Part shown: positions 424 to 16,007 of the stretch, piece after piece | Layout: every line of letters starts with the position of its first letter | Numbering within the stretch: position 1 is the stretch's first letter | DNA from: a virus | Lineage: Duplodnaviria > Heunggongvirae > Uroviricota > Caudoviricetes | Reading direction: 5' to 3' (one strand) | IMG/VR virus record: IMGVR_UViG_2713896896_000011 | Location: 1-16,007 of that record | Length of the DNA: 16,007 nucleotides | The notes under the pieces: model-generated | Databases searched by the model: none | What the model was told of the DNA's origin: nothing | Seen by the model: only the letters and a program-made list of their open reading frames with translations | Made by a program: the position numbers and the translations under genes

Positions 424-440
424 AGCCCGGCGTTATTTTA
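412..440 (+). terminator. rho-independent terminator between convergent genes
   Basis: 8-bp GC stem cgccgggc (412-419) / gcccggcg (425-432), 5-nt loop, then TTATTTTA (433-440). Strong on the plus strand. The same hairpin follows the stop of the minus-strand gene 438-893, but with a weak U-tract in that direction. Confidence 0.6.
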
Positions 441-893
441 CGGCTGATATTGCCAACTGCTGACTAAAGCATACAAATGGTTTGGGGAATAGCGCCAACT
501 CTCTTTTAACTGCAGAAACTCGGCGCAAAATTCACTGCAAAACAGACGATTGCGCTGTTCTTTATTGCCAGTGATAATTCCTAAGGCTCCGCGCCAGTCG
601 TATTTTTTGCCATTATGTTTATGGAAAAAAGCTTCCACATCCTGAAAGCTAGCCTGGAGCGGTAGCATATCCCACTTATCTGACGGTAGTGGCATTATCT
701 TTCCGCGTACACCGCGATCGCGCAGTGATGCAGAGTAGCAAAGGTAATTTTTTTCACCATGTACCACTGCTAACTCGCAGTGGGAATAACTGCCGCGTGT
801 GATTTTACGGGTAAGCCAGTCAGCTAGTTGCGCAATACCCCGGTGCTCTGTTCGGCCTTTATAGCAAGCGAGCCAGACAGTGGTTTTACTCAT
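438..893 (-). CDS. hypothetical protein, last gene of the tail operon; possible Cys/His hydrolase (permuted papain-like / NlpC-P60-like), unverified
   Basis: 151-aa ORF whose ATG (893-891) overlaps the tail fibre assembly stop (892-890) as ATGA, indicating translational coupling. Normal GC. Contains His-containing SYSHCELAVVHGE and Cys-containing LFCSEFCAEF motifs; the family guess is from motif resemblance only. Confidence 0.55.
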   Translation of the reverse strand: MSKTTVWLACYKGRTEHRGIAQLADWLTRKITRGSYSHCELAVVHGEKNYLCYSASLRDRGVRGKIMPLPSDKWDMLPLQASFQDVEAFFHKHNGKKYDWRGALGIITGNKEQRNRLFCSEFCAEFLQLKESWRYSPNHLYALVSSWQYQP

Positions 894-1504
894 GGTTGCC
901 AGCCTGTGGAGTAGTCGTAGTCGAGCACCGCCTGAATATCGCCCAGAGTTTCCACCGCCGCAATATGGCGCTGGGCGTTGGCAAACAGGCGCATATCGTG
1001 AGCCATGGTGACGGATTCAAACTGGGCGGCGATTTCATTGGTTAACTCAATCAGACCGTTATTTTTAGTTTTCCACATTAAACCTGGCGGAATTTGTTTT
1101 TCGGCTCCCATTTTTGTGAGTGAGAGTTGTTGGATTCGGCTATTTGTATCACTGTGGAAGTGATAGCCGTTGAGGATGATGTAATCGGTTGTGATGTAAT
1201 CTCGTTTGGATTTTATTCTTCTTATTATATCTTCTTTTATTTCTGAAATAAATTTAAGTATTGAATCTGTATCAACTATCCATTCTCCTTTTTTCAGTTT
1301 GTGAAATTTATCTGGTGGTGGCATAGAAATGAAGGATAAATCTTCACAGTTAATCCAAGTTGGAATATTATCTCTTGCATATATCTGCCATTGCTGATCA
1401 GTTATTTCAACTAAATGTTCTACTTTGGGATAGTTGTAACGTTCTGTATCGAACCAGTCCAAAACAACAAATGTTTCAGGATCAAAACATGCATATTTTG
1501 TCAT
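890..1504 (-). CDS. tail fibre assembly protein (Tfa-like chaperone)
   Basis: 204-aa ORF immediately downstream of the tail fibre gene (6-nt gap). Size and position match Mu U / P2 G / lambda Tfa-type proteins. The N-terminal-encoding half (about 1200-1504) is strongly AT-rich, the C-terminal half has host-like GC. Confidence 0.7.
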   Translation of the reverse strand: MTKYACFDPETFVVLDWFDTERYNYPKVEHLVEITDQQWQIYARDNIPTWINCEDLSFISMPPPDKFHKLKKGEWIVDTDSILKFISEIKEDIIRRIKSKRDYITTDYIILNGYHFHSDTNSRIQQLSLTKMGAEKQIPPGLMWKTKNNGLIELTNEIAAQFESVTMAHDMRLFANAQRHIAAVETLGDIQAVLDYDYSTGWQP

Positions 1505-1510
1505 TTTTAA

Positions 1511-3169
1511 TTACCATGATATTTTTACGAAACCAGAGGCACCTTTTGTTCCGCTAGTATTGCCTAAGTTTGTTAATTCATTATTGTCATATTCAAAAGG
1601 AGGCAAATAAGATCCTCCCGCTCCTCCAGAACCATAGCCTATTGCTGGTGTCGGATGTGTCATTATTGCCTTACTTCCACCATTATCCAGATATTCTGTA
1701 ATAACAGTGCCAGCGCTCCCTCCTTTTCCATATATGGAATTTTCACCATTCTTGCCAGGATAAAATTCTGCATATAACCGTATTGCGCCAGGTGCATAAG
1801 TATTTGGATGGTCAATGAATTTTATACAAGGCTGCGTAGTGTTAAAGTGATAAATGTTATATCCCCCATGACCTCCTTTGGCAATCATATTAGAAAATGA
1901 AGAGTCACCACCATCAAAGCTTTTTTGTGTTTTCTCTGTGTTATCCGATGAATACTTTACTTGTGAAACAGGTGGATTATTCCAAAATGGACCTCCATTA
2001 CCTCCAGCCCCAACCTTTACTGAAAAATGCTGGCTTGGTTCCACGTTTAAGTAACCAACGAGCAATTCACCTGTATTGCCACCACATGCTTCATAATATG
2101 ATGATTGTGCTCCTCCGGCACCACCACCACCGCCGCCCATAACTTCCACAAATAATGTAGTTACGCCATCAGGAACTGTAAATGTTCCATTTGTAGTATA
2201 AAAACTAGTGTGAGTATGATTAGCCGGAGCTGCAGCATTAGCCTTATCCATTGCCGCCTTAACCGCACTCGGCGTGGCTGCCTCCGTCGTGCTGTTGCTG
2301 TCCGTCGCATTATTCAGCTTCACAATCCCTTTTTGCGTCAGGGTGCCATCCTGAATACCCGTAATCTGCCCCCAGGGATGCGTATGACTGCCTGCAGCTT
2401 TACCATTTGCCAGGTCATACGCCGCCTTAACCGCGCTCGGTGTCGCTGCCTCCGTCGTGCTGGTGCTATTGGTCGCGTTATTTAGCTTCACAATTCCTTT
2501 TTGAGTCAGCGTACCATCTGGAATATCAGTAATTTGACTCCAGGTATGACGATGGTTTCGTGCCTCAATCATCGCCGCTTTCACCGCTTTTGACGTAGCC
2601 GCTTTAGTTTCGTCATCACTGTCAGTGGCGTTACTCAACTGCGTAAAGCCTTTTTGCATTAACGTAGCATCAGGATGATTAGTCGAACGTGCATGTTTAT
2701 CCAGTTGTGAATCAACATAATCACGTGTTGCCAGTACAATACTGGGATCAACGGTGAGTGTTACCGCAGTCGTGTTGGAAACTTCCATAATGAGACGAAT
2801 GCAAACTTGCTTACCGCTGCCGCCGGGTAATAGCGGTTTATACGATTCTGGGAATTTACCGATAGCAATAAGTTCGCCGTCAGTATCAAAAACGCCGACT
2901 TCACGTACATACCAGCCGCCGATATTTTCGGGCAGTACAAGTTCCGCAATTAACCAGTTAGGATTACTGGGTGCAACTGTTAATGTATTTAACTCACCAC
3001 GCCATACTTCATGACGTAATTTTGCTTGACTCGCCGAGGGTTCGTAATATTGCCCACCGCCGTCTCCAACGGCCATCTTTTGCAGATGTAGTTGTTTTTT
3101 ATCCGCAAGAGCACTGGCAATTTTTGCCATCCCCCTGTCGGTCAGGAGGGTATAAAACTCATTATCCAT
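1511..3169 (-). CDS. tail fibre protein (P2 H / Mu S-like N-terminal domain, fibre repeats, Gly-rich C-terminal domain)
   Basis: 552 aa. N-terminus (MDNEFYTLLTDRGMAKIASA...MAVGDGGG) resembles the tail-collar fibre N-domain. Three tandem ~56-aa repeats (TLTQKGIVKLNNATDSNSTTEAATPSAVKAA) follow, then a C-terminal domain with poly-Gly (GGGGGGAGG) encoded by low-GC DNA. SD GGAG precedes the ATG at 3169. Confidence 0.85.
   Translation of the reverse strand: MDNEFYTLLTDRGMAKIASALADKKQLHLQKMAVGDGGGQYYEPSASQAKLRHEVWRGELNTLTVAPSNPNWLIAELVLPENIGGWYVREVGVFDTDGELIAIGKFPESYKPLLPGGSGKQVCIRLIMEVSNTTAVTLTVDPSIVLATRDYVDSQLDKHARSTNHPDATLMQKGFTQLSNATDSDDETKAATSKAVKAAMIEARNHRHTWSQITDIPDGTLTQKGIVKLNNATNSTSTTEAATPSAVKAAYDLANGKAAGSHTHPWGQITGIQDGTLTQKGIVKLNNATDSNSTTEAATPSAVKAAMDKANAAAPANHTHTSFYTTNGTFTVPDGVTTLFVEVMGGGGGGAGGAQSSYYEACGGNTGELLVGYLNVEPSQHFSVKVGAGGNGGPFWNNPPVSQVKYSSDNTEKTQKSFDGGDSSFSNMIAKGGHGGYNIYHFNTTQPCIKFIDHPNTYAPGAIRLYAEFYPGKNGENSIYGKGGSAGTVITEYLDNGGSKAIMTHPTPAIGYGSGGAGGSYLPPFEYDNNELTNLGNTSGTKGASGFVKISW
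2204..2683 (-). repeat. three tandem ~168-bp coding repeats inside the tail fibre gene (third copy degenerate)
   Basis: gccgccttaaccgcactcgg at 2253-2272 recurs as gccgccttaaccgcgctcgg at 2421-2440, a 168-bp period, matching the repeated protein motif. Confidence 0.8.
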
Positions 3170-3171
3170 AA

Positions 3172-3804
3172 TTACTCCGGGTAAATAGATGTAATTTCAA
3201 GGCTCCATTGCCCTGTTCCGTAAAAGATTGTTGTGTTTTGTTGTACTTCCCGTATCTGGAAAGGTAAAAGCGTCGTCAGTTCACCCCCATAAAGCGCACA
3301 GCTAATAACAGGGATAGCACTTTGGTTAATGATCCAGACGATTAATGCTTCCAGTTTTGAACGTGTGTTTTTATATTCATGAATGAGTTCAACTAACTCA
3401 TTGAAAAGGTTTTCATCCATGCCTTTATCCACCAGTTCTATGTCAACCTTAAAAAAATAAGCTTTCCCGCCATATTCAAACCATTCGGCAATAGTTCCAG
3501 GCAATGAGAGTATTTCCAGTACTCGCCGTACCGCCCAAACTGTTCCTTTATATTTATGTAACTCAATGGCTTGCTTAATTAACTCACGCTTCTCTTGTTC
3601 ATCAGTAGTAAATAACCAACCTTCCAGCCCCTGAACGTGAAATTGTTCTGCAAGGGCAGGTAATGCCGAAGCATCAACCAGGTCGACCAGATAAACCATC
3701 AACGCCGTCAGATCGAGTTGCGCAAAACGTTCGGCGGCGATATTTGCCAGAGTTGAAAAACGCTCATCGCTGGTAAGCGGCGGCGGTAGCAGCAATTTAT
3801 CCAT
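3172..3804 (-). CDS. baseplate protein, P2 gpI / Mu gp48-like (YmfQ / DUF2313-like)
   Basis: Lies between the J-like gene and the tail fibre. The ORF track starts at TTG 3819; the likely true start is ATG 3804-3802 (MDKLLLPP...) preceded by GGAG and overlapping the upstream stop by 8 nt. Family call is from size, position and sequence resemblance. Confidence 0.7.
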   Translation of the reverse strand: MDKLLLPPPLTSDERFSTLANIAAERFAQLDLTALMVYLVDLVDASALPALAEQFHVQGLEGWLFTTDEQEKRELIKQAIELHKYKGTVWAVRRVLEILSLPGTIAEWFEYGGKAYFFKVDIELVDKGMDENLFNELVELIHEYKNTRSKLEALIVWIINQSAIPVISCALYGGELTTLLPFQIREVQQNTTIFYGTGQWSLEITSIYPE

Positions 3805-4912
3805 CGCTGACTCCGGCAATCGTGACGTCTATTACAGTGCATTCCGCCCATTCATGCGCCTGCAAAATACGTTTTGTAGGCATGTTCAGCACAACGTCAT
3901 AGACGCCATCGACTTGTAACACTTTGATTATCTGGTTTGGCACAATGTCCTGCCCCAGATGTTTCTGCCGCTGTTGCGTCCAGAGGCTAATCGCTTTACG
4001 CGCCGCAGTCAGTGTTGTCTCCTGATCGGCGGTGGTAAACAGCGTTAGCTGCGCACGAATTTCATACGGCACCCTGAGAGCACATTTCGCACTTACTTTG
4101 TCAGTCAGCGGACGTTTTTTCTCTTTACTCACTTCTTGTTCAATTTGCGCGAGTAGCTCGGTTCCCGGCAGACCATTCAGGGTTAGCGGGTAGAGCTCGA
4201 CGCAGCCTTCTGGCAACCCTTCATCTGGCCCCAGTACTGCAACGTCAATAATTGACTGGCTAACCGAAAGTGTATGAAAGCGATATGCGCCATAGCTGCC
4301 GGCATTACTGAAGCTTTCTGGCGCCAGTTGTATACGCTGGCGTAGTGCATCATCGTTCTCTTCACCGCAACCGCCGGTTGTGGGAGTCAGATTAGTCACG
4401 TTGATATCGTAATAACCGATCCTGTCAACAAGGGCGCTAATCTGTGCAGGCTGCCAGCCATTGCCCTGTTCACCTGCTGCGAGGCTGGTGGCCGGAACGG
4501 CGATATGCAAACTCCTGGCCGGAAGCAGAACATCTTCATCGGTGGCGAACATCACGCTGTCAGAGGCACTGGCCCGCGTCCCCTGGGGAATCAGGATATT
4601 GCTGGTATACGCACTGACGACCGAAAACTGCAACGTCGTTTTTGCCGGTTGCGCAGGTAAACGGTGAACACCCACCAGCTCCCCTAAATAATCCAACATT
4701 GGTGCGCGGGAATACGCGACCAGGTTTTGTTTCGCCGCTTCCTGAATGGCGATGCGCACAAGGTTTTCACGATAGGCAAACAGGTCGATGAGTAACCGTT
4801 CGGCCTGTGCCGGATAGAGTTTTTTACCGCTGGCATCTTCGTATTGCGCAATCATCTCGCTGGTAATTTGCGCAGGATCGCGGTCAATAAAATCGGGTTC
4901 GGCTATCGCCAT
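3797..4912 (-). CDS. baseplate J-like protein (P2 gpJ / Mu gp47-like)
   Basis: 371 aa. Strong SD GGAGG 4-5 nt before the ATG at 4912. Overlaps the upstream gp25-like gene by 10 nt. Conserved position in the baseplate module. Confidence 0.8.
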   Translation of the reverse strand: MAIAEPDFIDRDPAQITSEMIAQYEDASGKKLYPAQAERLLIDLFAYRENLVRIAIQEAAKQNLVAYSRAPMLDYLGELVGVHRLPAQPAKTTLQFSVVSAYTSNILIPQGTRASASDSVMFATDEDVLLPARSLHIAVPATSLAAGEQGNGWQPAQISALVDRIGYYDINVTNLTPTTGGCGEENDDALRQRIQLAPESFSNAGSYGAYRFHTLSVSQSIIDVAVLGPDEGLPEGCVELYPLTLNGLPGTELLAQIEQEVSKEKKRPLTDKVSAKCALRVPYEIRAQLTLFTTADQETTLTAARKAISLWTQQRQKHLGQDIVPNQIIKVLQVDGVYDVVLNMPTKRILQAHEWAECTVIDVTIAGVSDG

Positions 4913-5262
4913 AACACCTCCGTTGAGTTGATTACGCCGTCAGCGGCGCGCCATTGCACACGTAACGTCAGATGTTCACCGTCGATTATCGGTGCTACCT
5001 TCAGCAACCGACATCGCGGTTCCCACTGGCGGATGGCTTCCACCGACTCCCGTACCACATGCGGGATTGCCCGCTCGATGGGGTAATCGATGTAGTGCCA
5101 CAAGTTGCTGCCAAACAGCGGTCTGTGGGGATCACTGCCGCGCGGCGTGCGCAGAATGATGTGTATTGCCTGGTGAATATCATCCAGTCCGCAGACGTAT
5201 TCTTCAGGCCGCTGCAAGGCGGGTTGCCAGTGCAGCGTTGAGGGGCGTGTTTTTGTGTTCAT
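4903..5262 (-). CDS. baseplate wedge protein, gpW / gp25-like (Mu gp46-like)
   Basis: 119 aa. Contains RPLFGSNLWHYIDYP, resembling the gp25/W signature. Located between the spike and the J-like gene. Confidence 0.75.
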   Translation of the reverse strand: MNTKTRPSTLHWQPALQRPEEYVCGLDDIHQAIHIILRTPRGSDPHRPLFGSNLWHYIDYPIERAIPHVVRESVEAIRQWEPRCRLLKVAPIIDGEHLTLRVQWRAADGVINSTEVLWR

Positions 5263-5325
5263 GTGCTTATTTTCGCCCTGAACGGACAGTGGGGATATTA
5301 AAGCGATTTAGAAAACTGATTGATT

Positions 5326-5355
5326 AAAAAGAGAAAACCCGCCATCAGGCGGGTT
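5326..5355 (-). terminator. intrinsic terminator-like hairpin immediately after the spike gene
   Basis: Stem aacccgcc (5336-5343) / ggcgggtt (5348-5355), loop atca. On the minus-strand RNA it is followed by UUCUCUUUUU (plus 5326-5335). Sits in the 98-bp gap between the spike and gp25-like genes. Confidence 0.55.
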
Positions 5356-5360
5356 AAAAG

Positions 5361-6020
5361 CTAGTGTGAATGGTGATTTGAGTTACCACCGCTATCCTGC
5401 AATGTGCCGCTGGCCTGAACGTTACCAATCACATTGACATTGCCAGTTATCGTGGCGGCGTTACCGATGCCTCCACTTCCTGCCATGCCACCCAGCCAGG
5501 TGAGTTTTTTCATTACCGTGACGTTACCAGTAAAGGTGCTCATGGGCGCATCTACCGTCACTGTCGCCGCTTTAATATCGACGGTATCGGAAGTCACGGT
5601 GACCTGTTGGGCTTTAACCTCAACGTTGGGTGATGTCAGGTTAGTATGGTCAATAACCTCAATCACGATTTTCTCAATACCGCCGTTAATCGTAAGCTGG
5701 TGTGTGCTGCGGTCATATTCAAACGCTGCGCCATCAGAAAACTGGACGTAACGTTTATCTCGCGAGGCCACAGGCGCGGTGTCAACCGTAGAATAAACGG
5801 CCCCAAGTACCACGCCATCTTCGCCGTTGTCGTCCAGCAGAACTTCCACCTGCTCACCCATATCCGGTAGCCAGTAGTCTTTATTGTCCTGGGAATTACG
5901 TTGAAGTACCGCAAGCCAGTTACTCTTCAGATTGTCGCACTCTGGCAGTGTGACTCGCACCCGAACGCTGGTTTCGTCAATATCGCTGATAATCCCCGTT
6001 TGCCGGGTTACTCCCTTCAT
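5361..6020 (-). CDS. baseplate central spike / assembly protein V-like (Mu gp45-like)
   Basis: 219 aa. N-terminus GIISDIDETSVRVRVTLPECDNLKSNWL resembles gpV. C-terminal repetitive beta-helix-like region (GNVTV...GNVNVIGNVQASG) ends in the His-rich tip NSNHHSH. SD GGAGG 4 nt upstream of the ATG. Confidence 0.8.
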   Translation of the reverse strand: MKGVTRQTGIISDIDETSVRVRVTLPECDNLKSNWLAVLQRNSQDNKDYWLPDMGEQVEVLLDDNGEDGVVLGAVYSTVDTAPVASRDKRYVQFSDGAAFEYDRSTHQLTINGGIEKIVIEVIDHTNLTSPNVEVKAQQVTVTSDTVDIKAATVTVDAPMSTFTGNVTVMKKLTWLGGMAGSGGIGNAATITGNVNVIGNVQASGTLQDSGGNSNHHSH

Positions 6021-6029
6021 AGTGCCTCC

Positions 6030-7070
6030 TTACTGGCTGGTTGCTGGCCCGCGCGAAACGTCGATTTCAGTGGTATAGCCGCTGCGCACAAAACTGTGAG
6101 TAGATTTATCAATCAGCCATTGTCCAGAAAGAATACCAAAATCAATGAGTTCGATTTTATTGCCTGCTGTCAGTTCCGGGCAGCCCATCATCCTGAGTGT
6201 TCCGGTTTGCTGATATTCGTTGTGGCTGTCGAGTGCAGCGTTGGCCTTTGCCTGTGCCGCGCCAACATCCGTCGCCCGGCTGTTGAGTTTCAACGTGTCG
6301 GCACTGGTGCCGACTCCACGGGCTGACGGTTTTTGCTGGCTGTCGTGAGTGTAGATAACCAGTTCTTTTTTCTTACTATTTTGATGCTGTACGGTGGCGT
6401 TCTTGTAGATGCGATTAATGGTGTCTTTGAAGGTAAAGTGCGAAACCTCTTTGCGGTCGATGGTTTTCACTGGCGCCAGGCAGCGTAGTGTCGGCAGATG
6501 TGAAAAAATCAGCTCTTTTGTCGTCACTTTCACGGCATAGCCATATTCGCTGGCCAGACGCTTGAGAAATCCAACATCGGTTTCGCCGTACTGTGTCACC
6601 CGGTCAATCGCCAGCGGCTCGATTTTGCCCACCAGCTTCAGACCGTGAGTTTGCGCGATACGACTGGCGATGGCCGAAAGCGTCGTTTCTTCAAAGCCCT
6701 GACTGTTACGGGTACGCAGCGCCTGATTGACGGAAGTGGCAATGCCATCAATATTTACCGTGGAAGGTGGTGCTGAAATATCAATTTTATCAATAATATA
6801 CTGACCGCAATTGAGGAGCGTCTCCCCCTGATAACCCATATGCAGCGCCAGCGTATCGCCTTTGCCGGGATACCACTCTTTTATCCAACGTCCATCGGTG
6901 TCATCCAGTGTAATGGCGATGGTATCTGACTCGTTTTTGATGCTGTCGTGGTAACTGATGCTGGTGACATAGGGCGTGATGTCATAAGTGATATCTTTAT
7001 GCCCATACCAAAGGGTAAAAATGGGCGCGAGTGTGGCAAAGACGCCACCAGATACGCTTATCTCAGCCAT
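6030..7070 (-). CDS. baseplate hub / tail protein, P2 gpD / Mu P (gp44)-like
   Basis: 346 aa, placed between tail protein X and the spike as in Mu and P2 tail modules. Assignment by size, order and N-terminal resemblance. Confidence 0.7.
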   Translation of the reverse strand: MAEISVSGGVFATLAPIFTLWYGHKDITYDITPYVTSISYHDSIKNESDTIAITLDDTDGRWIKEWYPGKGDTLALHMGYQGETLLNCGQYIIDKIDISAPPSTVNIDGIATSVNQALRTRNSQGFEETTLSAIASRIAQTHGLKLVGKIEPLAIDRVTQYGETDVGFLKRLASEYGYAVKVTTKELIFSHLPTLRCLAPVKTIDRKEVSHFTFKDTINRIYKNATVQHQNSKKKELVIYTHDSQQKPSARGVGTSADTLKLNSRATDVGAAQAKANAALDSHNEYQQTGTLRMMGCPELTAGNKIELIDFGILSGQWLIDKSTHSFVRSGYTTEIDVSRGPATSQ

Positions 7071-7270
7071 GGTGGTATCTCCGATAAGGTTTTGTTGACG
7101 GAAATGACCGGAATAATGAGTTGAATACCGGAAGGCAGTACCGGGTAAATGGCGACATGTGGATTGGCGGCGATGATGCGTTCATAAGCCAGCGCATCGC
7201 CGTAGTAATACCATGCCAGATTATCCCAGCGTTCGCCGTCGGTGGTGATATGTTCAAGGTATCGCATCAC
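7058..7270 (-). CDS. tail protein X-like (LysM-like small tail protein)
   Basis: 70 aa. WYYYGDALAYERIIAANPHV...IQLIIP matches the LysM-like pattern of P2 gpX-type proteins. Start overlaps the upstream stop as ATGA. Confidence 0.7.
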   Translation of the reverse strand: MMRYLEHITTDGERWDNLAWYYYGDALAYERIIAANPHVAIYPVLPSGIQLIIPVISVNKTLSEIPPWLR

Positions 7271-8220
7271 CAGCTCCTCGTAATGGTCGCGGCAGCAAGC
7301 TGGCTCACTGCGGGAGTGGTTTGTTGTACCGTTGTTCGTGCCTGCTCAACCAACGTTGCGGCTTTATCGAACGTCGCTTCGGCGATGTCGTTGGTAATGT
7401 CGTCGAAAAGCGCCTGAGCATGGTCAACCAGCGTGCTGGCGTCTTTGGCGCAGTCCCGGATACCTGGCATGTTACCCAGTAAAGCGTTAATCTGCGCCGA
7501 TAACGCTTTTGGGAGTCCTGCCAGCGTTTGCAGATCCATGGGCTGTTTAAACAGGGTTTCGATGGCGTCGATAGTCTTTTTCAACGACGTAATTATCTTT
7601 TCACACTTTTCTTTTAACGCTTTGGCCTCTTTAACCAGTGCTTTCACTTTTGCCACCGTTTTTTTAATATCTTCAATGGCTTGAGTCAGCTCATCGAGCA
7701 TCTCTTTGGCCTTACGCATACCTTCTTCAATGGCGTTCAATATCTGATCAAACCAGGACTCCACCATGTCTGGAAAATCGCTCGCCTTTTCGTCAATATT
7801 CGGGTCTTGGGTAGTAATTGCCGGGGGCAAGAGTGGATTTTTAGGATCGCCGGTGTACTCCTGGAGCGACATTGTTCCGCTTTGAGCAATCACATTGCCC
7901 CAGGGATCGGTGTGCTGGTGGGTGGCGGTTAGCTCCGTAATCACAAACCAGCCGCGATAATCGCCATTGCCAAACACCAGAGCCATCGCTTTGTGGGCAA
8001 GCATGGCTTCACGCAGTCGATTCAGCTCTGTTGTGGGTTGGCAAAACTGGCTGTGCAAGGAAAATTCCAGTGCCAGCATATCCAGCTTATCGCCAATAAA
8101 CTGCACGCCGGGTTTGCCTTCTATACGGGCATGTGTGGCGTAGTCCACGCCCATTGTGCTTTTAAAGCCGTCCCAGAATGTGACAACCTTAAATTCAATC
8201 TCTCCTAAAACGGCATACAT
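7267..8220 (-). CDS. DNA circulation-like tail protein (Mu N / gp43-like, short form)
   Basis: 317 aa, immediately downstream of the tape measure; start overlaps the tape measure stop as TGATG. Central Lys/Glu-rich coiled-coil segment. Assignment mainly by synteny. Confidence 0.6.
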   Translation of the reverse strand: MYAVLGEIEFKVVTFWDGFKSTMGVDYATHARIEGKPGVQFIGDKLDMLALEFSLHSQFCQPTTELNRLREAMLAHKAMALVFGNGDYRGWFVITELTATHQHTDPWGNVIAQSGTMSLQEYTGDPKNPLLPPAITTQDPNIDEKASDFPDMVESWFDQILNAIEEGMRKAKEMLDELTQAIEDIKKTVAKVKALVKEAKALKEKCEKIITSLKKTIDAIETLFKQPMDLQTLAGLPKALSAQINALLGNMPGIRDCAKDASTLVDHAQALFDDITNDIAEATFDKAATLVEQARTTVQQTTPAVSQLAAATITRSW

Positions 8221-10595
8221 CAGGCATACCCCCGGCGCTGTTGTTGCGCCATTACGTCGTTAATCATTCTTTCCAGTTCGCGTTTACTTATCGTCAACAC
8301 GTTCTGAATGTCTTTAGTGGTGTTTTGTCCGTTACTCTGCACGGTAATTTGTGGCGAAAAATTCACCTGAACTTTTCCAGAGGAACGGGAGGGGAGCGTC
8401 GCCGGTTTGGTTACAGATTTACCAGGTAAAGAGGCCGATGCGGGTTTGGCGGCTGTATTTTTTGCCGCTGGTGTCGATGGCGACGTTGTCGTTTTACTGG
8501 ATGGCGCGAGTTGTTTGCCCACAGGAGGCGTTAAAATCGCTCCGGCAACGCCTGGAACAACGGTCGTGGGGGAGATTGATGCGGTATTCGTCGTGCTTGT
8601 AACAGCCGTAGCCGATCCTTCTGTGCTAATACCCATCGTGGTTTTTAGCCAGTCCGGTAAGGCGTTTTTGACCTGATCAATAATGCCTTTCAGAGCGGGG
8701 AAAGCATTCATTATGCCGTCAACCAGACTGCCCAGAAGATTGCTGCCGAACTCGCTAAAACTTGCAGGCATCTCGACACCAAACCAATTCATCACACTGG
8801 AAAAGGCGCTGTAGAACAACTCCAGCGGCGACCAGTCGAGAATTAACCGGCAAATCCCTGCAATGCCGCCGTCAAAGGCCGTGGTGATACGTTGCCAGAT
8901 GGCGGAAAAGAATCTGGAGATAGGTTCCCAGTGGCGATAGATCAGATAAGCAGCGCCCGCAATCGCGGTGATGACCAGACCAATGGGATTCATCAATAAA
9001 ACTCTACCCAACCAGAAGACGGTCTGACCTGCCAGTTTCAATGCGCCAATCAGGCCACGGCCAAGCAGTTGCGTTAGCCATTTTGCGCCGTTATATAATG
9101 ACTTAACCGCTGATAGCATCTTACTTGCCGCGCCTGTGAGCGTCAGACTTGCCCTGACTTTCAGGAAGATATCGACCAGACGAATAAACGGCGAGGCGAT
9201 GACGTTCGCGCCCAGCTTTAAAACATTCAGTGCGCCGTTAAACAGCCAAATCGCTCCGACGATTTTCGCAATGTTTTGCACCAGCGCCGGGTGTTCACGT
9301 AGCCAGGCGCTGAACTGGCGAATCACCGGAGTAAGGCTTTGCGCCAACTCGCCAATCAGCGGCATTAATTGCAAGCCAATGCTGAGCCATAAATCATTTA
9401 ACGCCAGTTGTAACGTTTTAGTTTGTTCAATGGGTGAGGCCATCTGCACAGAAAAATCGTTGTCAATCAGATTCTTACCGCTGTCTTGCATGGCGGAGGC
9501 TTTTAACTGGCGATACTCTTCCATATTCGCCAGCACAGGTGCCAGGAATTCCACTGTTTGCGCATCGCCGAACATTTCGCCCAGATTAAATTGCGTCACC
9601 ATCGATTGCAGTGCGTTGCTGCGAGCAGATAAATCTTCAATTTGCATGGTGCGTTTGAAGGTGTCGAGGATCGCCGGATTCATCTTCTCAAGTTGCGTTT
9701 GCACGATATGAATCATGGCTTCGCTAACACCCATGCCGTTTTGCTGATGTTCAAGCAGAGAGCCTTGCAGATCGACGCCCTGGCTGACGAACCAGTTATC
9801 GGTTTTTTTCGAAAAGATGGTTTGCAGAAAGTGGTCGAAATTCTCCGCCGCCACACTGGCGCTGGCACCATTTTTCATTGCGATCTGCATTGTGGCGGTC
9901 AGTTCAGCCATACCTTCTAAACCCTGTGCGCCAGTTTTAACTGCAAATTTGTCTATCCACTGTGTTTGCCCGGCAACGGTAGGCCCACCGTTTTTGCTAA
10001 TGCCGTACATCATGTTTTGCGCGGCGTGGAAATTTTCTGGCGCAATATTCAGTCGATCATGAGTCGCGAGCGCGGCATTCGCCCATGTTTCAGCACTTTC
10101 GCGCGTGGTGGTGGCCGCTTTGGCGATCTCCGGCATATAACGGTTGAGATCCTGCATCGACGACAAATTACCTTCGATTAGCACCTGGGCTGCGTTCTGT
10201 AAGGTGGTCTGCTGCTGGTTAAAATCCATGCTCCAGTCGCGCAGATTAAGGCTGAGTGTCTCGCGGGTTGTATCATTCATCCCACCTTTGGTCGCCAAAT
10301 TGACCATGTTGTCCTGAAACTCATACGGCAACTTCCAGTCAGGGATTTCAACATTGAATACTTTGCTAAATTGCCCGGCAAATGTTTGGGTTTTCTCCAT
10401 CAGATCAGCGCGGTTTCGGCTATTTTCCTCCAGGCGGAGAGCGGAATCGGCAAGTTGCTGCGTTAGTTTGATTACTGTCGCTTGCTGAGAAGAGAGTGCT
10501 AACAATGTTCTGGCGTTGAGTGAGCCGTAACGGGCTATTGCCTGCGTCAACGTCTCATTACGCGCCTGAAGCTGGGTAATAATATCGTTGGCCAA
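8220..10595 (-). CDS. tail tape measure protein
   Basis: 791 aa with internal hydrophobic segments and a Ser/Thr/Pro-rich C-terminal tract, located between chaperone and baseplate genes. Apparent start is TTG at 10595-10593 with AAGAG upstream; there is no in-frame ATG between the upstream stop (10634-10632) and the TTG. Confidence 0.85.
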   Translation of the reverse strand: MANDIITQLQARNETLTQAIARYGSLNARTLLALSSQQATVIKLTQQLADSALRLEENSRNRADLMEKTQTFAGQFSKVFNVEIPDWKLPYEFQDNMVNLATKGGMNDTTRETLSLNLRDWSMDFNQQQTTLQNAAQVLIEGNLSSMQDLNRYMPEIAKAATTTRESAETWANAALATHDRLNIAPENFHAAQNMMYGISKNGGPTVAGQTQWIDKFAVKTGAQGLEGMAELTATMQIAMKNGASASVAAENFDHFLQTIFSKKTDNWFVSQGVDLQGSLLEHQQNGMGVSEAMIHIVQTQLEKMNPAILDTFKRTMQIEDLSARSNALQSMVTQFNLGEMFGDAQTVEFLAPVLANMEEYRQLKASAMQDSGKNLIDNDFSVQMASPIEQTKTLQLALNDLWLSIGLQLMPLIGELAQSLTPVIRQFSAWLREHPALVQNIAKIVGAIWLFNGALNVLKLGANVIASPFIRLVDIFLKVRASLTLTGAASKMLSAVKSLYNGAKWLTQLLGRGLIGALKLAGQTVFWLGRVLLMNPIGLVITAIAGAAYLIYRHWEPISRFFSAIWQRITTAFDGGIAGICRLILDWSPLELFYSAFSSVMNWFGVEMPASFSEFGSNLLGSLVDGIMNAFPALKGIIDQVKNALPDWLKTTMGISTEGSATAVTSTTNTASISPTTVVPGVAGAILTPPVGKQLAPSSKTTTSPSTPAAKNTAAKPASASLPGKSVTKPATLPSRSSGKVQVNFSPQITVQSNGQNTTKDIQNVLTISKRELERMINDVMAQQQRRGYA

Positions 10596-10684
10596 AATTG
10601 TTTCTCTTATAGATTGGTGATGGCCCGCTGGTTAGTTTTCTGAAAAATGGGCTGGGAAGAAATAAACCTGGCGGGCTTTGAAGA

Positions 10685-10709
10685 ACTCGCAGACATCAGG
10701 TCTGCGAGT
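10685..10709. other. 10-bp perfect stem-loop in the chaperone-tape measure spacer
   Basis: actcgcagac (10685-10694) / gtctgcgagt (10700-10709), 5-nt loop. The loop contains the stop codon (10698-10696) of the +1-frame extension ORF. No adjacent U-tract on either strand. Confidence 0.5.
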
Positions 10710-10846
10710 CATATTCGATTTTTATTTGAGCGCTGGCTTCATCCAGCCAGTGACTAAAGTCATCTATCGTGAGCGCGTCAATCTCACTGGGTGGAAAGCG
10801 AAACCATCTCGCCAGTAGCGCCATTGCCTGCCATAGCAGGGGGGGA
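10696..10846 (-). other. candidate programmed-frameshift extension of the tail assembly chaperone
   Basis: A C7 run on the coding strand (plus 10839-10845) lies inside the chaperone gene. The +1 frame stays open from there to TGA at 10698-10696, 88 nt beyond the 0-frame stop; the -1 frame ends at 10766-10764. Chaperone-tape measure pairs with frameshift products are a conserved feature of tailed phages. Confidence 0.3.
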
Positions 10847-13736: not shown

Positions 13737-13842
13737 ATGAGGTTTACCTTATTACCGCTCACTTCGTTATCGTTGAAATGTATTCTGAAGCAGTGAGAGT
13801 GAAGAATCTTTTAATGTGATTTAGAGAAAAAATTGAATGGTT

Positions 13843-13877
13843 ATAAAAAATCCCCACACTTACGTAAAGGTGGGGAT
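13843..13877 (-). terminator. rho-independent terminator separating the lysis cassette from the tail structural genes
   Basis: Near-palindromic 28-bp hairpin (13850-13877; arms atccccac / gtggggat) 5 nt after the stop of gene 13882-14196. On the minus-strand RNA it is followed by UUUUUUAU (plus 13843-13850). Confidence 0.65.
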
Positions 13878-15104: not shown

Positions 15105-15659
15105 ACGATATCTCCTGATAAGTGAGATACCAGTGTCTGCTTATCTCTTTGCTGAAGAATGAAAAAAGCTTTAATAAATAACTTTAAAAAATGTGTTCTC
15201 TTCGAATTAACATGTTCGCCAATTAATCTCCCAACTCAAAATAGAGAACTAAGGATAAAATGGCTGCTAGTTAGATAAATCCTGCGTTATGTGTAATGAA
15301 GGGGATGACATATTGCAATCATGGTCATTACTTATTTGATTTTTAAAGTTTGTTTAAAAAAATCCTCGACTGTGAGGGAAACGAGCTTTTTGAAAAGTAG
15401 GCGATAAAAATGATAAATAGCACTGTATATGTATACAGTATCGTGTAAAATGGCACTCCTGTTGATAAGACATGTAATGAAAATAATATATTTGTTTTGT
15501 GAATTTATAATTCGTTTTAATTTTTATTGCATATACATTGTGATTATTTATTTGCGTGTTGAATGTATTGAAAAGCAGTAATTGCACCAACTTAGCGGAT
15601 ATCCGTGGTGTAACTCACATCAGAGTCCATACAGGGTGCAAGATATATGGAGATGAAAA
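15105..15659. promoter_or_regulatory. AT-rich divergent control region between the lysis/tail operon and the Mor-like gene
   Basis: About 555 bp at roughly 28% GC, flanked by divergently oriented start codons with good Shine-Dalgarno sequences on each side. Contains the LexA-like box and several dyad symmetries. Confidence 0.6.
15421..15440. promoter_or_regulatory. LexA (SOS) box
   Basis: CACTGTATATGTATACAGTA matches the E. coli LexA consensus TACTGTATATATATACAGTA at 18 of 20 positions, with intact CTGT-N8-ACAG (15423-15438). A TTGAAA -35-like hexamer at 15390-15395 and AT-rich -10-like sequence TGATAAAT (15411-15418) lie just upstream on the plus strand. Confidence 0.7.
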
Positions 15660-16007
15660 ATGATACAAAAAGCAAAAGAGATGACCCGGACACCGGAGAT
15701 CATTAACGATTTGGCGTTTCATGCTTCGCAAGTTCTGATTGAGAGCATCAATCTGGATAGCTCATCTGCGGAAAATGTTGGCTATGCCATTGCCGATCGC
15801 ATGATGCGAAACTGGGGCGGACAAAGCATTTATTTTCCAAAAGGAATCGCCAGGCGTGCCTCGGAGCGGGACTATCAAATCTATAGCGAGTGCGATGGGC
15901 GCAACTACGCCGAATTAGCGAAGAAATATAATCTGACGCTGCAATGGATTTATAAGATAGTAAAACGCGTGCATACAGAAAAGCAGCAACAGCGCCGTAT
16001 GCAGTAG
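15660..16007 (+). CDS. Mor/C-family transcriptional activator (Mu middle/late activator-like)
   Basis: 115 aa. C-terminal region GGQSIYFPKG...RDYQIYSECDGRNYAELAKKYNLTLQWIYKIVKR aligns by eye with Mu Mor (GGQVYIPRG...RIWNDFNGRNVSELTTRYGVTFNTVYKAIRR). SD GGAGA 6 nt before the ATG. The stop codon is the last triplet of the window. Confidence 0.7.
   Translation: MIQKAKEMTRTPEIINDLAFHASQVLIESINLDSSSAENVGYAIADRMMRNWGGQSIYFPKGIARRASERDYQIYSECDGRNYAELAKKYNLTLQWIYKIVKRVHTEKQQQRRMQ

Follow-up and report, generated by a model that had tools for sequence, protein, structure and literature searches.

Why should a compact tail operon break open just after its spike gene? The question is raised by a 16,007-nucleotide stretch of viral DNA (IMG/VR record IMGVR_UViG_2713896896_000011, Caudoviricetes; the whole stretch is called the window below), in which the spike gene V and the gp25-like wedge gene W are separated by 98 nt. 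The initial annotation of the window had placed a terminator in this gap, and had proposed that the genes beyond it may be separately controlled, in keeping with their exchange as a module. After comparing this junction with those of its relatives, we think it probable that the gap is a compound junction, in which an intrinsic terminator is followed by a late promoter of the Mor/C type. The genes and the gap concerned are the following.

5361..6020, minus strand: spike gene V (Mu gp45-like), 219 aa, Pfam Phage_base_V 7.7e-08
5363..5361, minus strand: V stop codon, TAG
5263..5360: V-W gap, 98 nt, the operon being on the minus strand
4903..5262, minus strand: gp25-like wedge gene W, 119 aa, Pfam GPW_gp25
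438..5262, minus strand: distal unit made of W (its first gene), J, I, fibre, tfa and a 151-aa cargo gene

The upstream unit ends with V. In the orientation of the operon, the gap runs TAG-CTTTT-AACCCGCC-TGAT-GGCGGGTT-TTCTCTTTTT-AATCAATCAGTTTTCTAAATCGCTTTAATATCCCCACTGTCCGTTCAGGGCGAAAATAAGCAC-ATG. The other junctions of the operon overlap or leave 2-12 nt, with three longer exceptions of 145 nt (lysis-gp37), 50 nt (tube-chaperone) and 188 nt (chaperone-tape measure), so that the initial description of nearly all of them as overlapping or abutting holds. The last of the three (10596-10783) is probably not a non-coding gap: it would be a frameshift-extended chaperone frame, as in Mu and P2. For comparison, we assembled the V-W junctions of 18 genomes, together with those of E. 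coli and Salmonella records, BcepMu-like phages and 80 IMG/VR contigs.

A terminator-like hairpin after the spike gene

The hairpin starts 5 nt past the V stop codon, belongs to the minimum-free-energy fold of the region, and is followed at once by UUCUCUUUUU on the coding strand. Its two parts are as follows.

5355..5336, minus strand: hairpin AACCCGCC-TGAT-GGCGGGTT, 8-bp stem with 6 GC pairs, 4-nt loop, -14.8 kcal/mol alone
5335..5326, minus strand: U-rich tail TTCTCTTTTT, directly 3' of the stem

Together with the last two bases of the stem, the tail reads UUUUCUCUUUUU, and U occupies 8 of the 10 positions after the stem. These are features of an intrinsic terminator, and the hairpin would be expected to act as one. 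On the plus strand, it is followed by AAAAGC and no T-run, and it would therefore serve the operon strand only.

A lenient terminator scan of the whole window gave 23 sites for 18.7 expected, that is, no overall enrichment. Stricter criteria were therefore applied on both strands (a stem of 7 bp or more without mismatch, 5 or more of them GC, a loop of 3-8, and 7 T or more in the next 10 bases). The V-W hairpin was then the sole site in the 16-kb window, against a mean of 0.02 sites per 16 kb in 300 shuffles, which confirms the hairpin and T-run first seen in this 98-nt gap. A dispersed repeat was ruled out by the single copy and fixed position of the sequence: in 189 complete E. coli genomes, hairpin and tail occur once per genome, always at this locus. 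No Rfam family matched the gap, the best sub-threshold noise being Trp_leader at 16.9 bits, for a gathering score of 41.

The same arrangement is found in relatives. Among the IMG/VR loci, 21 have a gap of 96-100 nt (on contigs of 13-18 kb, of the tail-only type), and in every one of them the stem CCCGCC/GGCGGG and a T-run lie right after V, with seven different loop sequences; Superficieibacter has the same stem and T-run. In Phytobacter an insert splits the stem, yet the fold still ends with a hairpin and a T-run. In Dryocola, one half of the old stem persists; another hairpin with a T-run is present, and then an insert. We take the Phytobacter insert to resemble a repetitive extragenic palindromic (REP) sequence, and the Dryocola insert an enterobacterial repetitive intergenic consensus (ERIC) sequence, judged by eye only.

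A conserved promoter-like block before W

Downstream of the hairpin, the last ~63 nt before the W ATG (5325..5263) are constant among relatives, though the gaps range from 45 nt to ~3.3 kb. This block is shared by gamma- and beta-proteobacterial elements, from Escherichia to Pandoraea, Chromobacterium and the BcepMu-like phages, even where the remaining gap is unrelated or kilobases long. Column conservation was measured on 18 non-redundant sequences, and hexamer statistics on 49 distinct sequences. The general order of the unit is TCAA at -61..-58, CTAAnnnnCTTTAAnAnCC at -49..-31, a GC-rich spacer, a hexamer of the form nAnnAT, and C at -1. In the window, its parts are the following.

5318..5323, minus strand: TCAA(T/C) block, -61..-56 from the W ATG, upstream edge of the promoter unit
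5299..5310, minus strand: imperfect dyad TAAATC|GCTTTA, centre between 5305 and 5304, -42.5 from the A of the ATG
5297..5292, minus strand: poor -35 region TATCCC, 2/6 matches
5269..5274, minus strand: predicted -10 hexamer GAAAAT, -12..-7
5262, minus strand: predicted transcription start, on the A of the W ATG, placed by geometry

The dyad is conserved as CTAAnnnnCTTTAAnAnCC in Escherichia, Salmonella, Phytobacter, Dryocola, Superficieibacter, Pandoraea, Chromobacterium and the BcepMu-like phages. Its general form is TAAAKC|GCTTTA (TAAAGC|GCTTTA), and in one Pandoraea genome (L008) it becomes a perfect 14-bp palindrome, TTAAAGCGCTTTAA. We predict that it is the binding site of an activator of the Mor/C family; the TCAA(T/C) block could be an UP-like element or a second contact of the activator. 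In the hexamer, none of the 49 distinct sequences departs from A-11 or T-7, which are the two most important bases of a sigma-70 -10 element. G-14 is conserved in at least 90% of the sequences, and the distance from hexamer to ATG is 6 nt in 43 of them and 7 nt in the remaining six. A generic sigma-70 scan of the window did not call the block. The initial annotation had overlooked it, and the fragment that it proposed for a promoter-probe fusion (5263-5330) is exactly this conserved block.

A G-run is present upstream of the hexamer and a C-run downstream of it, ending beside the ATG (5263-5280 and homologous positions in the 49 sequences). Examples are GGGGGC-AATACT-GCCCCC, TAGGG/CCCTA and GAGGC/GCCTC, and in the window the pairing is largely lost. 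An open reading frame (ORF) of 53 aa with a TTG start spans the gap on the plus strand (5166..5327); the conserved features of the gap are all on the minus strand. Finally, in the IMG/VR contig L054 (60-127), W is preceded by a look-alike of the lac operator and T7-vector ribosome site (AATTGTGAGCGGATAACAATTCC...AAGAAGGAGATATACCATG), and this locus looks like a cloned construct rather than a natural one.

A predicted start on the W initiation codon

The geometry of the block places the start of transcription on the first base of W, and both C-1 and A+1 are conserved at this position in the 18 non-redundant sequences. The Shine-Dalgarno match of W is weak, at -3.7 kcal/mol where most genes of the operon that start with ATG reach about -6 to -12, and it is weak in most relatives too. 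Considering the distance between hexamer and ATG, this weak match, and the precedent of phage P2 (see below), the W mRNA is probably leaderless.

Further copies of the promoter signal

A position weight matrix (PWM) was built from positions -62..-28 and -14..-6 of the non-Escherichia W-upstream sequences only. Its scores were as follows.

Window, W site: 42.3 bits
Window, lysis-gp37 gap (non-homologous), predicted start 13775: 25.7 bits
Window, next best site: 7.6 bits
Window, 20 nt before the holin ATG: 5.4 bits
PhiKM, lysis cassette: 27.4 bits
PhiKM, W, with +1 exactly on the annotated ATG: 19.1 bits
PhiKM, between G and the head protease, where Mu has PI: 15.5 bits
PhiKM, tail chaperone: 15.3 bits
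PhiKM, DNA adenine methylase: 9.8 bits

In 100 shuffles of the window, the maximal score was 3.6 bits on average (standard deviation 3.4), and 16.2 at the highest. In E. coli (40.1, 30.4 and 11.4 bits) and in Salmonella (51.9, 30.8 and 17.2 bits), the three top sites are those before W, gp37 and the holin gene. The second site of the window lies in the 145-nt gap mentioned above, which repeats the layout of the V-W gap: a hairpin and T-run, then a promoter unit.

13845..13877, minus strand: sister terminator-like hairpin ATCCCCAC..GTGGGGAT then TTTTT, between lysis genes and gp37, -15.5 kcal/mol
13775..13836, minus strand: sister promoter unit before gp37, with TTCAAT (TTCAATT) and dyad TAAATC|ACATTA, centre 13818|13817
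13787..13782, minus strand: hexamer CAGAAT of this unit; predicted start 13775, gp37 ATG 13736

As the signal before gp37 is the same as the one before W, both units appear to answer to the same activator of the Mor family. Separate control of the distal genes, as initially proposed, is therefore not supported. It is very likely, from the conserved 63-nt block, that the genes from W to the cargo gene form a transcription unit of their own, initiated separately; with the 25.7-bit copy of the signal before gp37, this unit would be regulated together with the upstream one.

In the PhiKM genome, the five best sites are all on the coding strand and all in front of operons (maxima in 200 shuffles: mean 3.9, highest 15.6 bits). 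The four strongest share the sequence nAnACTGyCyCC, which covers the -10 and the discriminator. Away from W, at the other PhiKM sites and at the gp37 site, transcription is predicted to begin 19-38 nt ahead of a start codon that has an ordinary ribosome site. Only at W, therefore, do +1 and ATG coincide, and the model itself does not impose this.

A candidate activator encoded in the window

The window contains a gene for a protein of the expected family.

15660..16007, plus strand: Mor/C-family activator gene, Pfam Mor 8.2e-38, divergent from the operon

The protein is 44% identical to the late activator of PhiKM, with a conserved recognition helix, and shares 36% identity over 61 aa with C of Mu. 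We presume that it is the activator of the promoter units described above.

The region between the holin and the mor-like gene, 555 nt long and AT-rich, contains a unique LexA-box-like palindrome, CTGTATATGTATACAG, at 15423-15438. It overlaps the spacer and the -10 of a minus-strand sigma-70-like site (TTTACA-16-TACAGT, 15449..15422), which suggests that the element is under SOS control.

Breakpoints and cargo at the junction

The proposal that the distal unit was exchanged as a module at the gap had to be rejected. Six genomes with an identical V protein (L021-L026), the closest relatives, match the window at ~98.8% identity without a break over 9020..3296, a span that includes the gap. From ~3296 (about 3220-3296), similarity drops to ~68%, in the part of the I-like gene encoding the C-terminus, and into the fibre gene. 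Among genomes with the identical V, fibre genes range from 470 to 582 aa. This sharp break and the differing fibre lengths argue for an exchange of the host-range module at I/fibre, ~3296 being the breakpoint rather than the gap. Variation of the gap itself among relatives is due to inserted cargo, and not to the module downstream.

In all cargo cases, the insert is upstream of the promoter block; in the window, the slot is empty. In Salmonella, gtrABC (LT2 STM4204-4206), an operon for O-antigen glucosylation, and small ORFs are found between V and the block (L002 8464-11791), flanked by direct repeats of ~46 bp. These repeats contain a REP-like hairpin. A matching empty site was found in L055 (2325-2500), which has 176 nt and one copy of the repeat, L002 being the occupied allele. 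Six IMG/VR contigs of BcepMu-like phages (L081, L083, L088, L094, L109 and L110) have, ~945 nt upstream of W, a gene for a 283-aa AbiJ_NTD4 protein (Pfam 1.1e-35) in the V-W gap, which is likely an abortive-infection defence gene. Another IMG/VR contig has an 88-aa antisense ORF in the gap, and Pandoraea and Chromobacterium sphagni have three unrelated small ORFs. The junction thus shows what is expected of an insertion hotspot, namely unrelated cargo at a fixed junction, an allele with the empty site, and gaps from 45 nt to ~3.3 kb. In the literature searched, we did not find a hotspot described between spike and wedge genes of BcepMu-like tail modules.

Three Chromobacterium loci (L017-L019, 2860-7000) were considered as 3.4-kb cargo loci and dropped, as they show a permuted gene order instead: a V-like gene, a fibre gene, a 196-aa ORF and an I-like gene are directly upstream of W. 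The promoter block still accompanies W in these loci.

Comparison with known systems

The closest match in layout to this junction is that of P2. In the P2 record (AF063097), S is followed by a rho-independent terminator, the nonessential orf30, the activator site of pV and the start of the V operon, in this order. The feature 'transcription start site for V operon; encodes V, W, J, I, H, G' is at 10308, which is the first coding base of V. There is thus a precedent for a leaderless baseplate and fibre operon placed behind a terminator and an accessory slot. In the window, the parts come in the P2 order and a leaderless start is likewise predicted, as seen here from sequence alone. Differences are that the P2 unit starts with the spike gene V, whereas in the window V is upstream and the break comes one gene later, before the gp25-like gene, and that the binding-site sequences are unrelated. 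Ogr, the P2 activator, is a zinc-finger protein; the activator of the window belongs to the Mor family, and not to this Ogr/Delta type.

Mor and C of Mu recognise an imperfect dyad of 16 bp whose centre is at -43.5; their promoters have a -10 but lack a -35 (PMC2582627, PMC4390567). The Mu record also shows a predicted terminator directly followed or overlapped by a Mor/C promoter after mor (Pm), C (Plys) and G (PI). The promoter unit of the window resembles those of Mu (Pm, Plys, PI, PP, Pmom) in its activator family, its -10 without a -35, and its upstream imperfect dyad. Mu likewise has a separate late transcript, from PP, for baseplate and fibre genes. Unlike the promoter proposed here, however, PP is internal to gene N, 335 nt upstream of the hub gene P; neither an intergenic gap nor a terminator is present, and the Mu genes for gp45 and gp46 overlap. 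The C sites of Mu are of the type TTAT-N6-ATAA, and the distance from dyad to hexamer is 1 bp shorter in the window. The PWM found no site in Mu (best score, 0.2 bits); the window site would therefore belong to the same architectural class with a different specificity, and not to the Mu regulon. To our knowledge, the late transcripts of Mu are not known to be leaderless.

Moron and defence hotspots of temperate phages are alike in having unrelated accessory genes at one fixed junction between conserved structural genes, but in the window the slot is empty.

Gene content and location of the element

In order, the window encodes a holin, an SLT-type transglycosylase, a membrane protein, gp37, sheath, tube, tail chaperone and tape measure, then a GpU/N-like protein, X, D, V, W, J, I, fibre, the DUF4376 assembly protein and a 151-aa unknown. 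No head gene was found among the genes of the window. Pfam matches in the distal unit are GPW_gp25, Baseplate_J, Tail_P2_I, Phage_tail_fib and DUF4376. The nearest tail genes are those of BcepMu-like phages (Bcepmuvirus), such as PhiKM and KP12. Of 5,426 complete E. coli genomes, 197 contain the element, with lysC and yjbD on either side of it, and its Salmonella counterpart is LT2 STM4198-STM4219. In the literature searched, no published description was found of the element as a tail-derived bacteriocin (tailocin), nor of BcepMu late promoters.

The V orthologue of E. coli is labelled 'phage baseplate assembly protein V' in RefSeq. V has 219 aa in the window, compared with 233 aa in most E. 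coli genomes (L001 12559-13260), and alignments with other genera cover 240-261 residues. The variation in length is C-terminal, and V is less conserved than W. At 411-433, just past the last gene of the element, a strong terminator-like hairpin is found on the plus strand, GCGCCGGGC-GTAAA-GCCCGGCG(T), which presumably serves as terminator of the convergent flanking gene.

Discussion

We infer from the sequence that the terminator (5355..5326) would end, or strongly cut, the transcript that runs through gp37, sheath, tube, tape measure, hub and spike, and that the late promoter in the block (5325..5263) would restart transcription for the baseplate-wedge, fibre and cargo genes. An activator of the Mor/C family would bind the dyad ~43 bp upstream of the start, at a promoter with no usable -35 and GAAAAT as its -10. 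Transcription starting on the A of the W ATG would yield a leaderless mRNA. With their own promoter, the distal genes would not suffer polar effects from DNA inserted between the spike gene and that promoter, and this would explain why relatives have their cargo at exactly this junction.

Several points weigh against this proposal. The centre of the dyad is at -42.5 rather than -43.5, and its half-sites are unlike those of Mu, so that binding by a Mor-like protein is something we infer. The copy of the signal near the holin gene (15125-15190, minus strand) scores 5.4 bits, within the range of the shuffles, with 11.4 bits in E. coli L001 and 17.2 in Salmonella L027. Two C residues break the U-tract of the hairpin. 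BcepMu-like phage contigs have the promoter block and no terminator, their gaps of 45-63 nt being too short for the hairpin. The terminator is therefore not required for the arrangement, the promoter would be ancestral to the tail module, and the terminator would be a conserved addition in enterobacterial tail-only elements. No mapping of 5' or 3' ends at the locus turned up in the literature searched, including with LT2 tags, or in the accessible part of a Salmonella differential RNA sequencing (dRNA-seq) supplement. Within the block, lastly, enterobacterial and Pandoraea sequences contain another possible -10, TAATAT (5300..5295), and modest covariation between the G-run and the C-run hints at an RNA function, in a region that a start at the ATG would leave untranscribed.

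These last two points can be combined into a different promoter, with TAATAT as the -10, a start near 5288, a 26-nt leader carrying a GC-rich hairpin, and the dyad as an operator in the spacer. At this position, TAATAT or TAAAAT occurs in the enterobacterial and Pandoraea sites and in several of those from PhiKM. For the inverted repeat around the hexamer, whose helix was specified by hand, 68% of cells are paired compared with 60.7% in shuffles, and covariation is 0.204 compared with 0.108, which would make sense if the region were transcribed. A control with the pairing slid by +1 is still 64% paired, however, so that covariation may reflect composition, and RNAalifold finds no consensus pairs between dyad and ATG in the 18 sequences. 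Moreover, the upstream hexamer degenerates to TAAAAG, without the critical final T, in the Chromobacterium W sites and in the gp37 site of the window, whereas A-11 and T-7 of the downstream one are kept in 49 out of 49. The motif nAnACTGyCyCC is common to four PhiKM promoters that lack the hairpin, and activators of the Mor/C family are not known to work from the spacer (PMC2582627). This arrangement of the promoter is thus unlikely.

Another way to read the gap is that it contains nothing but a terminator or 3'-end element, the block being a signal in read-through mRNA, for non-Shine-Dalgarno initiation or for processing, with the distal genes expressed from an upstream promoter. Read-through must indeed occur in those phages of the family that have no V-W terminator, W has no good Shine-Dalgarno sequence, and a hairpin-like symmetry abuts its AUG. 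But the same two blocks, with the same spacing, are found before four other PhiKM operons and gp37, 19-38 nt away from start codons with ordinary ribosome sites, which fits a DNA promoter and not an RNA signal tied to the proximity of a start codon. A strong terminator without a promoter would also starve the essential wedge and fibre genes, and cargo of up to 3.3 kb with its own signals is tolerated upstream of the block. We find this explanation quite improbable. As for the hairpin, it could be passive, a scar or terminator left by a lost insert, or a 3' stabiliser of the V transcript, with little effect on the distal genes. In favour of this, the junction attracts insertions, accessory genes that insert often come with terminators, the hairpin is absent from phages of the family, and its U-tract is imperfect. 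Yet it begins 5 nt past the V stop, and its stem is kept in 21 of the 21 short-gap loci while the loop is free. The differing or expanded hairpins, still with a T-run after V, in Dryocola and Phytobacter suggest selection for function, and the lysis-gp37 junction has the same pairing of hairpin and promoter. A passive hairpin therefore seems very unlikely to us, and a terminator coupled to a Mor/C-type late promoter remains our preferred explanation.

A broader proposal, which we put forward tentatively, is that the spike-wedge junction of BcepMu-type contractile tails may be a promoter-insulated cargo slot, in phages as well as in chromosomal tail-only elements of gamma- and beta-proteobacteria. 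A -10 located 6 nt (7 in a minority) before the wedge ATG would give a leaderless mRNA and make the downstream genes independent of inserts, be they a defence gene, an O-antigen modification operon or a terminator, and the symmetry of G- and C-runs may add a control at the RNA level on read-through.

A terminator alone would be ordinary; it is the junction as a whole that is of use. It provides a sequence signature by which late promoters could be recognised in BcepMu-like phages and in the related tail-only elements of E. coli and Salmonella, and from which induction and operon structure could be predicted. For the engineering of tail-only particles, it would mark a safe insertion site and a control element to retain. 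A promoter placed downstream also suggests why gtrABC and AbiJ-like defence genes gather at one point inside an essential tail operon. If true, the leaderless start of W would be a second, independent example of a leaderless baseplate operon beside P2 pV, and would allow one to ask whether leaderless initiation serves tail assembly.

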